Shown: in pieces, positions 28,385 through 43,798 of the stretch | How the letters are laid out: each line of letters starts with the position of its first letter | Position numbering within the stretch: the stretch's first letter is position 1 | Notes under the pieces: model-generated | Told to the model about the DNA's origin: nothing | The model's input: the letters and a program-made list of their open reading frames with translations, nothing else | The model's database searches: none | Position numbers and translations under genes: made by a program | Origin: Nitrospirota bacterium | Lineage (GTDB): Bacteria > JACPQY01 | NCBI GenBank assembly: GCA_016180645.1 | Contig: JACPAV010000008.1 | Span: 1-64,000, forward strand | Direction: 5' to 3' | Length of the DNA: 64,000 nucleotides

Positions 28385-28498
28385 CGGAGAGGGTGGGATC
28401 CTGAAACGGCAATCCTGCCGTTTCCCAGCATCCCTGTGGAGGTCGCACATCCAGTGCTCCCTGAAGATCTCTCCGCTTGACTTCGCGGACTTGTCAAT
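28385..28498 (-). repeat. tRNA 3'-linked unit ending in a duplicate of the tRNA-Ser 3' end
   Basis: Minus strand ends ATCCCACCCTCTCCG, identical to the tRNA 3' end; GGA-loop hairpins inside. Confidence 0.75.
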
Positions 28499-28584
<86 letters not shown>

Positions 28585-28665
28585 AAATGTGCGCCTGACG
28601 GCGCGAGGCCATCCTGGCCTCGATGGTGCGCGACCGCACCGTCCTGGCTGGTCACGCACCTCTCC
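28585..28665 (-). repeat. tRNA 5'-linked unit starting with a duplicate of the tRNA-Ser 5' end
   Basis: Minus strand GGAGAGGTGCGTGA (tRNA nt 1-14) followed by CCAGCCAGGACGGTGCGG. Confidence 0.75.
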
Positions 28666-39017: not shown

Positions 39018-41195
39018 ATGAAATCCCAAATCTCAAATCTCAAATCTCAGATGGATGGCGGGGCGGCCCACCCCTCCGGTCCCGAATCTCAAGGCGGCTT
39101 CCGATGGAGGATCGTGGGCCTTGCCGCCGCCGGCGTGGTCCTCACGGCCGCGGCAGCGTTTGTCCTGGTTCACATCGTCCTCCGCGATCCGTTGCGGGAG
39201 GCATGGCTGGCGCGAACCGAAACCCTGAATCGAACCGCTTCCGCCGTCGTCCGCTCCACGCGGGAAGACGTGCTGGGCGCAACCCTCGCGCCACTGACGG
39301 CGGACCCGGACCTCGCCTGGCTGGAAATCTATCGCTCGGACGGAACCCTCGCCTTTCAGCACCTTCAGTCCAAACCTCCGACGGCCGCCCTGGATCCGGT
39401 CCGTGCCCTCCCGACGGATCGGCTCCAGATCCGGGAAGAAGCCGAGGCATTCGATGTCTGGAGCAAGCTCGTCACCGTCACGATCCATGAGGACGGCAGC
39501 ACGGCCGAGTCCATCTACTTCATCCGTTCCGGCATCACCAAGAATTTTCTCTCCGTCTGGAGCCGTCGGATCGCGGCTCGCTCAGGGATCGCGCTGGGGG
39601 CCGTGGCGCTGCTCCTGATCGCCGTTTCCCTTCCCCTCGCCGCGCGGCTGGTTCGCCCGATCAACGAAATGGCCGAGATCGCCTCCGGAATCGGCCGAGG
39701 CGATTTTCGGCGGCTCGCGCGCGACGACCGAGGCGACGAGGTGGGCGCCCTCGCCCGAAACCTCAACCTGATGCTCGGCGGACTCGCGCAGGTCCTCGAC
39801 CACACCCACGCCGCGCTCCGCGCCATCCGCGACACCTCCGAGTATCTTCAATCGTCCGCGGCCGCCCTGAAAGACGGCTCCGCGGCCCAGCGAGAGGAGT
39901 TCGAGAGCACCCGCGCCGCAACCACCGGCCTGGCCCAGGTTCTCCACTCGATTGCAGGACAGACGGAAACGATCGAGCAATCGGCCTCCCACATCGGTTC
40001 CTCGGTCCACGAATTGACCACCTCCGTCCGCGAGATGAAGAAGTACTTCGCCACCCTTTCCGATCTCCTCGCGCAGACCGTCACCAGCATCCGGCAGATG
40101 GCGGCTTCCATCGCCGAAGTGGCGCAAAGCGCCAAGACGCTCAAACACGTAAGCGAGGAGTCCACTCTGGCCACGAAGTCCCTCGCAGCTAAAACGGACG
40201 AGATATCCCGCCGCTCCCTGGACACCGCTCGACTTTCGCGTGACGCGCAAGCGGCCGCGGAACGGGGCAGCGAAATCCTCAAGAACACCCTGTCCAGCTC
40301 CAACGAAATCTTCCAAACGTTCACCGTGATCAAGGATCACACCCAGATTCTCGACACGGAGCTCCGGAAGATCACGGAGGTCGTGCAGGTCATTGAAGAT
40401 CTGGCCGACAGGACCAATATTCTTTCGCTGAACGCCGCCATTATCGCGGCCCAGGCCCGGGAGCATGGAAAGGGCTTTATGGTGGTGGCGGACGAGATCA
40501 AGAAACTGGCCACGTCCACCACCCATTCCCTCCGCGTGATCGAGTCCACCGTTTCCTCGGTTCAGGACAAGGGCGTGCAGGTGCGCAAGGCCGTCGAAAT
40601 GGGCGAAGACCGCGTCAAACGCGGCATCGGTCTTTCCGAAGAACTTGAACGGTCTCTCCGGGAGATTCTGGAAGCCTTGGCCGTCGGGGCCGAGATGGCC
40701 CAAGAGATCAGCAAGCTCACCCAGGCTCAGAAGGAAAGCACGGACGGGGTGCGTATCACCATCGAACAGGTCGACCGCATGGCCCGGTCCATCTCCACCG
40801 CCACCGGCGAGCAGGCCCAGACCTCCGAGACCATCAACCGCTCCTGTGAAGAGCTTCGCGACATCGCCGATCGAGGCACACGCATGATTGCCGAACAGTC
40901 CGAGGCCGGCAATACCGTGGCCAAAGGAGTTGAAACGATCGTCGATCTCTCTCGCGCGCTCGGCGCCTCGAAGAGCCAGGGTCTGGAGCGCTACGGCCTG
41001 ATCGAACTGGCCGTTGAGAAATTGGAGGAGGTTGCCCTTCTTTCCCTGGAAAACATCGACACGATGCGCCAGAAAATCGATGAATTGGCTCGATTGGCCG
41101 AAACGCTTGAGGCCGAGATTTCGCGGTTCAACGTCCCCGGCCCGTCCGTCGCCTCTTCGCAGCCCCTCCCCGCCACCCCCTCGACTTTGCACTGA
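39018..41195 (+). CDS. Methyl-accepting chemotaxis protein with long cytoplasmic domain
   Basis: Two TMs, periplasmic domain, HAMP ([11 protein letters not shown]), [33 protein letters not shown]; start uncertain. Confidence 0.9.
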
Positions 41196-41220
41196 GCAGA
41201 GCGTCTGATAATCTGAGCCG

Positions 41221-42162
41221 GTGGAGCACCATCACCACCCCCGTCTGGAGAACCACGATCCCGATTCCGACGAGGCGGCATGCAAGCCTCGGGAGCAGGT
41301 TTCCACCCGCCTCCTTTGGATTGTAGGCATTTCGGCCGCCATGATGGTGGTTGAAATCGTCGGCGGCCTGCTCTCCAACAGCCTCGCCCTGCTCTCCGAC
41401 GGATTCCACATGTTCACCCACGTGGGTTCGATTCTCATCAGTTACATTGGAATCCTCGTGGCCACTCGTCGGGAATCCGAGAACCAAACCTTCGGCTACT
41501 GGCGCGCCGAAATTCTCTCCGCCTTGTTCAACGGCGTGACGCTCCTGCCGATTGTCGGATACATCGTTTATGAGTCGATTCAGCGCTTCAGGCATCCCGA
41601 TGTCGCTCACGTCAACGCCAAAGTGAGCCTGGCCATCGGGGCCGCGGGCCTCGCGGTCAATCTCGTCGGCGCCCTGCTCCTTCACCACAAGCACGAGGGC
41701 GACCTCAATGCGCGCTCGGCCTTTCTCCATCTTTTGGGCGACATGTTCTCCTCCGTCGGCGTGGTCGTCGCAGCCATCATGATCATGTTCACGGGATGGG
41801 ACCTCCTGGATCCCCTCATGAGCCTGGCCATCGGTTTCATGATCCTCCTCTGGTCGGGGCGCCTCATTCGCGAGTGCGTGGGGATTCTCCTTGAATCGGT
41901 CCCGAAAGGAATTCGTGTTCCGGACGTTCGGGAAGCCATTCTCAATGTCGGCGCCGTGCGAGAGGTCCACGATCTCCACATCTGGCAGATTACCAGTGGA
42001 ATGCCGATGCTCACCTGTCACGTGGTGGTCGATGACATGCCCCTGGCCCAAAGCGAGAGCGTCGTGAAGGATATCCATACGCTGCTCGATCGCCGCTACG
42101 CCATCTCCCACTCGAACATCCAGGTGGAGTCCGTTGCGGCGACGCCGCCCCCTACAGGTTGA
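41221..42162 (+). CDS. Cation diffusion facilitator (CzcD/ZitB-like)
   Basis: SNSLALLSDGFHM, TFGYWRAE, DLNARSAFLHLLGD, VHDLHIWQI. Confidence 0.92.
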   Translation: MEHHHHPRLENHDPDSDEAACKPREQVSTRLLWIVGISAAMMVVEIVGGLLSNSLALLSDGFHMFTHVGSILISYIGILVATRRESENQTFGYWRAEILSALFNGVTLLPIVGYIVYESIQRFRHPDVAHVNAKVSLAIGAAGLAVNLVGALLLHHKHEGDLNARSAFLHLLGDMFSSVGVVVAAIMIMFTGWDLLDPLMSLAIGFMILLWSGRLIRECVGILLESVPKGIRVPDVREAILNVGAVREVHDLHIWQITSGMPMLTCHVVVDDMPLAQSESVVKDIHTLLDRRYAISHSNIQVESVAATPPPTG

Positions 42163-42197
42163 CTCTTCACTCATCACTCATCACTATTCACCTCCGT

Positions 42198-42412
42198 GGA
42201 GAGGTGGCCGACCAGCCATGGACGGCGCGGCACTTGCCGACTCAGGTCGAGCAGGATAGCGAGACAAGAGCAACGGCAAGTGGCGGAGCGAGGCCAAGTA
42301 ATTTGGGAGAGGTGGCCGAGCGGCCAGCCACGGAAGGTGCGGCACCTGCCGCAAGAAAGCCGAGCGTGACGCGAGGCAGTGCCAACGGCAGGTCAGCGAG
42401 GCCGGGTAAATT
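42198..42412 (+). repeat. Two tandem units (108 and 107 nt), each starting with the tRNA-Ser 5' end
   Basis: GGAGAGGTGGCCGA at 42198, 42306 and 42413 (the tRNA itself); homologous structured bodies. Confidence 0.85.
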
Positions 42413-42501
42413 GGAGAGGTGGCCGAGCGGTCGAAGGCAGCCGCCTGCTAAGCGGCTGGGCTGAGAAATCGGTCCCGTGGGTTCAAATCCCACCCTCTCC
42501 G
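42413..42501 (+). tRNA. tRNA-Ser(GCT)
   Basis: GGAGAGG/CCTCTCC acceptor stem, anticodon arm GCCGC-CTGCTAA-GCGGC, long variable arm, GGTTCAAATCC T-arm; CCA not encoded. Confidence 0.93.
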
Positions 42502-42622
42502 TACATGGATGTACGGCCCTTGAAGATGCCGGGAGGGTCAGGGCGACCCGGAAGGCTGCGGAAAGGGCCGCGGAAGTGAACCGAAATGCGGGAATGCAAT
42601 CCGTTGAATCCCTCCCTCTCCG
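42502..42622 (+). repeat. GGA-rich tRNA 3'-linked unit ending in a near-duplicate tRNA 3' end
   Basis: Ends GAATCCCTCCCTCTCCG versus tRNA AAATCCCACCCTCTCCG. Confidence 0.75.
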
Positions 42623-42627
42623 ACTCC

Positions 42628-42657
42628 TTGACCCTTTCCCCTTGGGCAGGTTAGACT
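42628..42657 (+). promoter_or_regulatory. Putative sigma70 promoter for the rSAM gene
   Basis: TTGACC-N18-TAGACT, 10 nt before GTG 42668. Confidence 0.45.
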
Positions 42658-42667
42658 ACCCATACCC

Positions 42668-43798
42668 GTGAGGGAAACAGAGACCGTCAATCGAGAGAAC
42701 TCCGTTCTCGCCAAGGTGCGGCGGACCGTCTTCGAGAAGTGTATTCCGATCAACGCCACGCTCGAAATCACTCTCCGTTGCAACCTCCGCTGCCACCACT
42801 GCTACAACTTCGACCGCGCGGAACCGTATTCCGCCCATCGCGCGGGGTTTGAGCTTGCCACCGCGGAAATCTTCAGAATCATCGACGAATTGGCGGAAGC
42901 AGGCACACTCTATCTCAATCTCACGGGTGGTGAAGCCACGCTCCGCCCTGATCTCATGGACATCATTCGTCGGGCACGGCAGCGACACATGATGGTCAAG
43001 ATCAAGTCCAACGGACTCAGGCTCGACCCGTCGAGGGCTCGGGACATAGCCTCGGCTGGGGCGTACGGGGCAGACATCAGCCTGTATGGCTTCAGCGAGG
43101 CCACCTACGCATCCTTCACCCGGACTCCCGGCTCTTTCCGCCGCGCTCTGTTGGGGATTGGGGCAGCGCGAGAGGCGGGACTCCGCGTCCATCTTTCCAT
43201 ATGTATCCTCCGAACGAATCTGCACGAAATCGAAACGATGGCAGACTATGCCAAGTCCCAGGGACTTCCTTACAGCCTCGATCCCCAGATCACCGCGCGA
43301 TACGACGGCACCAAGAATTCCTCGGATCTCCGGGTGGACGCCGCCACCCTCGCATCGTTGTACCGCGGCATCCTCCGCGAAACCGTCACGATTCCCAATT
43401 CACCCCCACACCTGCCCCCCCAATGCTCCTGCGCCCGCTCCACGTGCGGCATTACGGCTTTCGGAGAGGTCTACCCGTGTATTGGAGCACCGCTGGCCGC
43501 GGGCAACCTCCGGGAAAGCAGCTTTGCCGACATCTGGGCTCACTCCCCGGTGCTGCAACGGATTCGTGGCCTGACCTTGGAAGATTTCCCGACCTGCAAG
43601 CCCTGCTCCTACCGCGCGCAGTGTCGCAGAAGCTCAGGCGCCGTCTACTCCATTACCGGCGATTACACCGGAGCAGAGGATTGGACGTGCATGGAGGCCG
43701 AGATCCTGCACACGATAGCGCGCGAAACCCCGGGGAACCCGGCTCCATCCGCATCGCCGCAAGGTTCGGTCCGCCGGTTTTCCGTGGAATTGAACTGA
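42668..43798 (+). CDS. Radical SAM/SPASM domain protein, putative peptide maturase
   Basis: CNLRCHHC, LTGGEA, SPASM-like CSCARSTCGITAFGEVYPC...GNLRESSFADIW...CKPCSYRAQC. Confidence 0.9.
   Translation: MRETETVNRENSVLAKVRRTVFEKCIPINATLEITLRCNLRCHHCYNFDRAEPYSAHRAGFELATAEIFRIIDELAEAGTLYLNLTGGEATLRPDLMDIIRRARQRHMMVKIKSNGLRLDPSRARDIASAGAYGADISLYGFSEATYASFTRTPGSFRRALLGIGAAREAGLRVHLSICILRTNLHEIETMADYAKSQGLPYSLDPQITARYDGTKNSSDLRVDAATLASLYRGILRETVTIPNSPPHLPPQCSCARSTCGITAFGEVYPCIGAPLAAGNLRESSFADIWAHSPVLQRIRGLTLEDFPTCKPCSYRAQCRRSSGAVYSITGDYTGAEDWTCMEAEILHTIARETPGNPAPSASPQGSVRRFSVELN

Follow-up and report, generated by a model that had tools for sequence, protein, structure and literature searches.

tRNA genes are classic landing sites of mobile DNA, to our knowledge always by way of their 3′ parts. 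The integrative elements that target them leave part of the tRNA directly repeated on either side of the insert, keep the gene intact and have their junctions in loops; the repeated part is the 3′ part, and the element carries an integrase. Small dispersed repeats form further classes. REP/REPIN (BIME) sequences of the RAYT system are short, structured, high-copy, gene-less and clustered, with a hairpin kept by compensatory change; each is a palindrome of 20–40 nt, their clusters are inverted doublets, and RAYT genes are flanked by their own repeat. MITEs are recognized by terminal inverted repeats, a target-site duplication and an autonomous relative that bears a transposase. Another layout is produced by the Varkud and Mauriceville retroplasmids of Neurospora, which have an affinity for tRNA: the 5′ segment of a gene is followed head to tail by the element and then by the whole gene. 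The hybrid cDNA of these retroplasmids reportedly integrates by homologous recombination. Related work on retroplasmid reverse transcriptases (RTs) is treated in a secondary account (PMC9925561). High-affinity sites of the RNA-binding protein CsrA present GGA in the six-nt loop of a hairpin, with RUACARGGAUGU as the SELEX consensus (PMC7652899), and CsrB/Rsm RNAs are tandem units with GGA in the six-nt loop of a short hairpin.

The window analysed here is a stretch of 64,000 nt from the genome of a groundwater bacterium (own genome, G000; 4.7 Mb in 65 contigs, 97% complete). The original prediction concerned the region upstream of tRNA-Ser(GCT), where the 5′ end of the tRNA was said to recur at 42198, 42306 and 42413. 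Exact copies of its 5′ 14-mer, GGAGAGGTGGCCGA, were confirmed at all three positions, with periods of 108 and 107. The intact gene (42413..42502, + strand; ARAGORN 42412-42502; Rfam tRNA 42413-42501, 59.4 bits), in which CCA is not encoded, begins with the third copy. Positions 42198-42412 hold two units of ~107 nt, each consisting of a copy of the tRNA 5′ part (14 or 18 nt; hereafter the stump), one ~70-nt element that opens with CCAGCC and a tail of 19–23 nt. A genome-wide pattern search with the tRNA-Ser 5′ 14-mer returned 11 matches, nine being tRNA-Ser 5′ ends or stumps and two unrelated.

Stump 1 (42198..42211, + strand) corresponds to tRNA positions 1–14 (14/14 identical). It is followed by element copy 1 (42212..42282, +; nhmmer family match; R1 covariance model 42212-42282, 62 bits), which forms a 5′ hairpin with an ATGGAC loop and then a long hairpin with the inner stem GTC-GA-GC..GC-GA-GAC. 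Tail 1 (42283..42305, +; 23 nt) reads GCGG, identical to tRNA positions 15–18, then AGCGAGGCC and a T-rich end; its similarity to the tRNA past position 18 is not significant. Stump 2 (42306..42323, +) corresponds to positions 1–18 (18/18 identical), so that the tRNA-identical stretch is 18 nt in unit 2 and 14 nt in unit 1. Element copy 2 (42324..42393, +; nhmmer; R1 match 42324-42394, 65.7 bits) is followed by tail 2 (42394..42412, +; 19 nt), which consists of C, AGCGAGGCC and GGGTAAATT. All motifs listed in the original prediction are present, namely the CCAGCC-ANGGAN-GGY hairpin, the inner GNC-GA-GC..GC-GA-GNC stem and AGCGAGGCC, as is the compensatory change in the outer stem (a U-A to C-G swap). 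Unit 1 folded with z = –3.70, which 0 of 200 shuffles equalled, and unit 2 with z = –1.59, equalled by 13 of 200.

A consensus scan found no promoter or terminator within the units. Directly 5′ of unit 1 lies a weak, putatively promoter-like site, TTGACT-N17-CACTAT (42159..42187, + strand), which was seen by eye; the scan, which requires 4 of 6 matches in the second hexamer, did not list it. The site shares sequence with the stop codon that ends the cation-efflux gene. A heptamer tandem repeat, ACTCATC (42162..42191, +; 3.4 copies, TRF), lies between the end of this gene and unit 1. On the other side of the tRNA, a short hairpin GTAC-ATGGAT-GTAC (42501..42514, +) extends from the discriminator base on. 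A-N-GGA-N-loop hairpins at or just past the discriminator base were seen at several tRNAs, at 42501-42514 of the window and at loci L121, L031 and L032 of a sister genome, where they follow tRNA-Asp and tRNA-Ser; these hairpins closely match the published CsrA SELEX consensus.

Two objections that the original prediction had raised against itself, an assembly artefact and a match to a known Rfam family, found no support. The locus is reproduced in contigs of four sequencing runs: those of three runs span 41900-42900 with 0 differences, and that of the fourth spans 41900-42515, likewise free of differences. None of the listed runs that contain the locus is recorded as RNA. All four runs belong to one groundwater study that is possibly the source of assembly GCA_016180645.1, so their agreement with it is not independent; an artefact at this locus is nevertheless unlikely. 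In an Rfam 15 scan of 41000-43500 (both strands, E ≤ 10) only the tRNA passed, and the best match on the units was msiK, which scored 14.1 bits where its gathering score is 33 (E = 5.7).

The unit bodies are neither specific to tRNA flanks nor a private RNA gene: each body is a member of a lineage-specific, dispersed two-hairpin repeat of ~70 nt (hereafter the CCAGCC element), present in 41–50 copies, mostly away from tRNA genes. Searching the own genome with both units gave partial matches on many contigs, and iterated nhmmer converged on 41 copies. The R1 covariance model (E ≤ 0.01, with E-values that are rough) detected 50 copies in G000 and 11 in the sister genome, G001, which is 84% complete, belongs to another genus and is the only other genome compared from the family or phylum. 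All 41 copies open with CCAGCC and share a 19-nt 5′ module, followed by a hairpin of variable sequence. A pattern of the module had 37 matches in G000, 6 in G001 and 0 in 39 other genomes (reversed control, 0), while the exact 19-mer had nine matches, single and unrelated, among 185,579 species genomes. Plasmid and phage collections held nothing resembling the element. A metagenome scan for relatives gave five loci, the best with 48% protein identity; no tRNA lies upstream of the radical-SAM orthologue in G001. With two genomes of the lineage and distant metagenome relatives to compare, it is the dispersed copies that suggest mobility of the element.

We aligned 35 of the 41 copies; of the six left out, two duplicate others exactly, three are truncated and one is atypical. 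Within the 19-nt module 13 positions are invariant. The module is a hairpin of 3–5 bp with a six-nt ANGGAN loop; in GCC-ANGGAN-GGU, G9, G13 and G14 are invariant and G10 and A11 are conserved in at least 90% of copies. The long second hairpin is conserved in structure only, with strong covariation. In the three-helix structure 88.9% of cells are paired, versus 76.2% in shuffles, and both partners have changed at 7 of the 11 pairs in the outer stem and at 4 of the 6 in the inner stem. The covariation score was reached by 0 of 500 shuffles, and pairing fell to 28–48% when partners were slid. RNAalifold independently recovered the outer stem. Two G-U pairs are nearly fixed (32 and 26 of 35 copies), so the fold is strand-specific and belongs to the strand shown. 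The original view of the bodies as structured, with real compensatory changes, holds across these 35 copies.

Ten of 39 loci are head-to-tail arrays of two or three units, and at their joints the final CC(A) of one unit is the opening CC(A) of the next. The 5′ end of the element is constant; its 3′ end is ragged, often reaching from a few to ~20 nt into a further unit. Copies have no conserved left flank and, except at tRNA loci, within arrays and at one tandem composite, no flank repeat of at least 10 nt. Most lie away from tRNA genes without duplication of the host sequence. Replication-strand bias was not seen (18 vs 21 relative to GC skew), and neither was a clear bias towards neighbouring genes: 26 of 43 copies share their strand with the gene downstream, by a crude gene call that is unreliable near GC-rich repeats. 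A rule that the element sits in hairpin loops was tried and dropped, as its flanks paired no better than shuffles did (mean z = 0.16, and z < –2 at 0 of 31 loci). At C57:10279-10530 of the own genome we observed a 142-nt tandem repeat in two copies, each made of a degenerate element-like unit and a full element.

Like REP/REPIN sequences, the CCAGCC family is short, structured, high-copy, gene-less and clustered, with a hairpin kept by compensatory change, and Y1 (HUH) transposase genes exist in G000. Yet the element is ~70 nt long and has two different hairpins and an invariant 19-nt module instead of a palindrome; its clusters are direct head-to-tail arrays instead of inverted doublets; and no copy flanks any Y1 gene of G000 (no element match better than E = 0.34 within 2.5 kb of any of the seven Y1_Tnp genes). 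The MITE hallmarks are lacking as well: the two ends, CCAGCC... and ...GTGCC, do not make terminal inverted repeats, and no target-site duplication is a general feature of the copies. Nor was an autonomous, transposase-bearing relative found, the largest shared context being a non-coding composite of 126–129 nt in which an outer GC-rich hairpin surrounds one element copy (four copies with 84–93% identity in the own genome, at C17:83968, C25:97467, C31:4952 and C62:14321). The Y2_Tnp (IS91-type) profile had no match, and its control also matched nowhere. The family resembles REP/MITE-type repeats yet lacks their defining features.

Most copies are remote from tRNA genes, but the family is enriched next to them. 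At five of 39 loci a tRNA gene is found within 150 nt, versus 0.24 expected (maximum of 3 in 5000 random placements), and all seven copies within 300 nt of a tRNA have its orientation. In a census of 104 tRNA genes the 5′ 14-mer was found repeated upstream in five: Ser-GCT, Ser-CGA, Ser-TGA, Lys-TTT and Gly-GCC; Ser-GGA has a decayed stump with three mismatches. Stumps therefore mark 6 of the 48 tRNA genes that lie outside two tRNA arrays and 0 of the 56 that lie within. All four non-array tRNA-Ser genes bear one, which by our own arithmetic has a hypergeometric chance of ~8 in 100,000. The two dense arrays (C21:21779-25649 and C29:62471-67783) comprise 56 tRNA calls with near-complete isoacceptor sets; they include odd anticodon calls (tta, att), and none of their genes has a stump or an element.

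Every stump begins at tRNA position +1, directly 3′ of a promoter-like region, and the insert follows immediately. The stumps end in loops, after position 14 (three cases), 18 (two), 21 or 36–37, and the exact repeats at the six junctions measure 14, 18, 14, 21, 37 and 18 nt. Inserts are 67–128 nt per unit, too small for any gene. In the inserts of Ser-GCT (both units), Ser-CGA, Ser-GGA and Lys-TTT the CCAGCC module comes first; the Ser-TGA insert has a different hairpin module at a stump junction at 36/37, and the Gly-GCC insert is an unrelated sequence that has no CCAGCC element. After the insert, significant continuation of the tRNA was found at none of the six G000 loci. The second case in the window lies on the – strand: a stump exactly matching positions 1–14 of tRNA-Ser(CGA) (28652..28665, –), a short element variant with its tail (28585..28651, –; 67 nt) that has the CCAGCC..GGTGCGG 5′ module and a different body, and the intact tRNA-Ser(CGA) (28498..28584, –). 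Its layout is nearly identical to that of tRNA-Ser(GGA) on contig C25, with compensatory changes in one hairpin.

Sites resembling the promoter-like one 5′ of unit 1, of the form TTGAC/TTGCT-N17-(C)ACGAT, are found ahead of the stumps at Ser-CGA and Ser-GGA and at the Ser-CGA gene of the sister genome. TTCACGA-like heptamer repeats were observed at the same three genes, between a TTGAC-like hexamer and the start of the tRNA or stump; heptamer repeats upstream of tRNAs may belong to a tRNA promoter layout peculiar to this lineage. A different two-hairpin repeat was seen 3′ of three tRNA-Arg genes, antisense to the tRNA (C12:2040-2120, C3:101930-102010 and C23:15830-15900); one of its hairpins has tandem G-A, the other a GGA loop on the opposite strand.

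The layout resembles that of tRNA-targeting integrative elements: a directly repeated segment of the tRNA brackets the insert, the gene is intact and the junctions lie in loops. However, the stumps repeat the 5′ part, from +1 to the D-loop or anticodon loop, where integrative elements repeat the 3′ part; the inserts (67–215 nt) have no integrase; and, unlike att-bracketed islands, the CCAGCC family lies mostly elsewhere in the genome. A mirror image of island integration would have a circle of element, tail and tRNA positions 1..k integrate in the D- or anticodon loop through a recombinase acting in trans, replacing the 5′ part of the gene as island integrases replace 3′ parts. The direct repeat, which spans from the loop to the gene end, the conserved module placed right at the junction, the arrays beside the gene and the two recurrent junctions 4 nt apart (14/15 and 18/19) are what such a cassette should leave. 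Against it stand inserts of 67–110 nt devoid of an integrase gene, the many copies that are distant from tRNA genes and have no repeat, and an element that was inserted without a 5′ part in the sister genome. Double-stranded circles of 70–110 bp are, moreover, physically unlikely, and we find this explanation hardly likely at all. In the sister genome we also observed att-like repeats at a 3′ end, unlike the 5′ stumps: the last ~15 nt of tRNA-Cys (L114) recur twice within 160 nt downstream.

In G001, 42 Rfam matches yielded 37 distinct tRNAs for examination, of which two have stumps, Lys-TTT and Ser-CGA, so that the layout recurs in two genera. At the Ser-CGA gene of G001 a stump of positions 1–18 is followed by a CCAGCC element, tRNA positions 19–36, a second hairpin module and the intact gene; the second module is the one found at 36/37 in the Ser-TGA stump of G000. 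The CCAGCC element is here a plain insertion in a longer stump, which indicates that the element alone can be the inserted piece. Of the original proposal, a unit that enters the tRNA 5′ part and regenerates the gene, the layout is borne out by its recurrence at other tRNA genes, while the unit is not always the inserted entity. Elsewhere in G001, at L021 (C41:1002-1072), a small two-hairpin repeat is nested in the inner hairpin of an element copy; the same repeat was seen 3′ of tRNA-Ile(TAT) of the own genome (C11:36385-36443).

The continuing stump of G001 Ser-CGA and the element-free Gly-GCC stump also indicate that stumps can exist without the element. This opens the possibility that the stumps came first, as partial tandem duplications of tRNA genes that owe nothing to the element, and that elements settled later in the loops of the disposable copies, hits in the working gene being lethal. 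Both cases fit, as does the second module shared with the Ser-TGA stump at 36/37. The GCGG that follows the element in unit 1 and equals tRNA positions 15–18 points the same way, with a common tail motif and the element on either side of GCGG. But a segmental duplication should also repeat the native leader, and the tails are unlike the sequence upstream of the stump, while all stumps start at +1. Five G000 loci have no significant tRNA continuation after the insert, and a stump that ends exactly where the insert starts is left unexplained. We regard duplication ahead of and apart from the element as decidedly unlikely.

The +1 start of the stumps is also the 5′ end of the RNA, and the order of a gene 5′ segment, a head-to-tail element and a whole gene, together with the affinity for tRNA, recalls the Neurospora retroplasmids. 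A polymerase copying the element RNA could switch to a tRNA or tRNA fragment and run to its 5′ end, and the hybrid cDNA could then recombine with the tRNA gene to give the observed order. Such copying would join the RNA 5′ end head to tail to the fixed 5′ end of the element, and head-to-tail arrays and ragged 3′ ends are in keeping with it. Unlike the retroplasmids, though, our case concerns a gene-less element of 70 nt in a bacterial chromosome for which no RT was found: RVT_1 had 0 matches in the binned sequences of G000 (97% complete) and of G001 (84% complete). A further argument, that the element supplies the CCA of tRNAs and hence passes through an RNA intermediate, started from two tRNAs that directly abut the element and read ..N-CCA-GCC. 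It was dropped, as tRNA-Ala(CGC) of G001 natively encodes CCA and tRNA-Cys of G001 natively ends in CC; the same two genes weaken the idea that the element took its CCA from the 3′ ends of mature tRNAs, and this counts against RNA copying. In the census, 5 of 104 tRNA genes were flagged by the script as encoding CCA, tRNA-Ala(CGC) being mis-registered and unflagged. Lys-CTT of G001, considered as a third CCA-element case, has merely a GGA hairpin. Overall, an origin by copying between RNA ends appears very unlikely. GIY-YIG proteins were also considered as candidate enzymes, and none of the five matches comes closer than 2 kb to a tRNA with a stump; the closest lies 2.9 kb away from tRNA-Ala(CGC).

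The Lys-TTT layout is orthologous between the two genera and bears on whether stumps have a function. Its stump is identical at 17/17 positions and the region of the 5′ module at 25/32 (~78%), while the next 60 columns of the insert are identical at 21/60 (~35%) and the spacer to tRNA-Glu is unconserved. The perfect stump amid saturated surroundings reflects either constraint or homogenization with the gene by slippage or conversion. Under constraint, selection would have kept the stump and the 5′ hairpin because they act in cis within the pre-tRNA. The hairpin with its GGA loop could be a protein-binding site of the CsrA-family type, or the stump and the true 5′ strand could be rivals for pairing with the acceptor 3′ strand, which would tune RNase P processing; dispersed copies would be the same protein-binding module in other transcripts. 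Neutral debris would not have kept the Lys-TTT stump, unless homogenized with the gene, and the 13 invariant module positions and the layout at 4/4 non-array tRNA-Ser genes likewise suggest selection. A csrA gene is present in G000 (C3:150841-150999), and the form of the module fits high-affinity CsrA sites as described in PMC7652899. As a putative CsrA-type site the 19-nt module is a lead, not a result. CsrB/Rsm RNAs themselves differ from the CCAGCC element, which has 1–2 GGA loops per 70-nt unit and at most three units per locus, lacks both a promoter and a terminator by the consensus scan, and is dispersed as a mobile repeat would be.

Several observations count against a selected leader. 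Stumps have decayed at Ser-GGA of G000 (three mismatches) and at Ser-TGA of G001, where remnants only are left, which indicates that the stump state can be lost, and Ser-GGA of G001 has no stump. Junctions vary between genera and between the two units at Ser-GCT (14 vs 18), and the crude gene call gives no clear orientation of copies to neighbouring genes. Finally, a pattern of perfect or decayed stumps would also result from slippage homogenization between direct repeats. We consider a functional leader unlikely, although the stump shared between genera keeps the idea viable.

The reading we prefer, at about even strength for and against, is that the CCAGCC element is a small, non-autonomous, proliferating DNA element whose events in tRNA 5′ loops survive by means of a duplicated 5′ part and give rise to an extended leader transcript. 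A protein acting in trans would read the invariant 19-nt hairpin module, probably its recognition site, and the body would be kept solely as a hairpin. Events in the 5′ loops of tRNA genes (D-loop at 14, 18 and 21; anticodon loop at 36) would be tolerated only where the 5′ part is doubled, insertion and duplication being coupled. One 5′ copy would be left as the stump by the promoter-like region; the other would remain joined to the rest of the gene, so that the gene stays intact. The two-unit array at Ser-GCT may have arisen in two separate events, at positions 14 and 18, or through a single event and a later unequal recombination. Transcription would most likely begin in the region 5′ of unit 1, with the array forming a 215-nt leader that RNase P then cleaves away.

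Full-text searches of mostly open-access literature turned up no account of tRNA 5′ stumps joined to structured inserts in bacteria, and the combination of a stump with a dispersed repeat at tRNA 5′ ends seems to be previously undescribed. Six tRNA genes, including every non-array serine tRNA, retain a spare 5′ copy joined to a structured repeat. A more far-reaching reading, which we hold to be speculative and unlikely, is that they represent an unrecognized class of tiny gene-less elements at the 5′ side of tRNA genes, mirroring the integration of islands at 3′ ends, with the stump and GGA hairpin kept as a working leader. Under it, junctions would be set by tRNA structure or RNA ends (a start at +1 and an end in the D- or anticodon loop), and the outcome would be, for example, a protein-controlled switch on the maturation of tRNA-Ser and tRNA-Lys. 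If the elements are selfish, they would stand for a new way of inserting into essential RNA genes and regenerating them without a gene of their own; if functional, for a new kind of pre-tRNA leader. Either way, a structure supported by covariation and an invariant 19-nt motif are open to testing at the bench.
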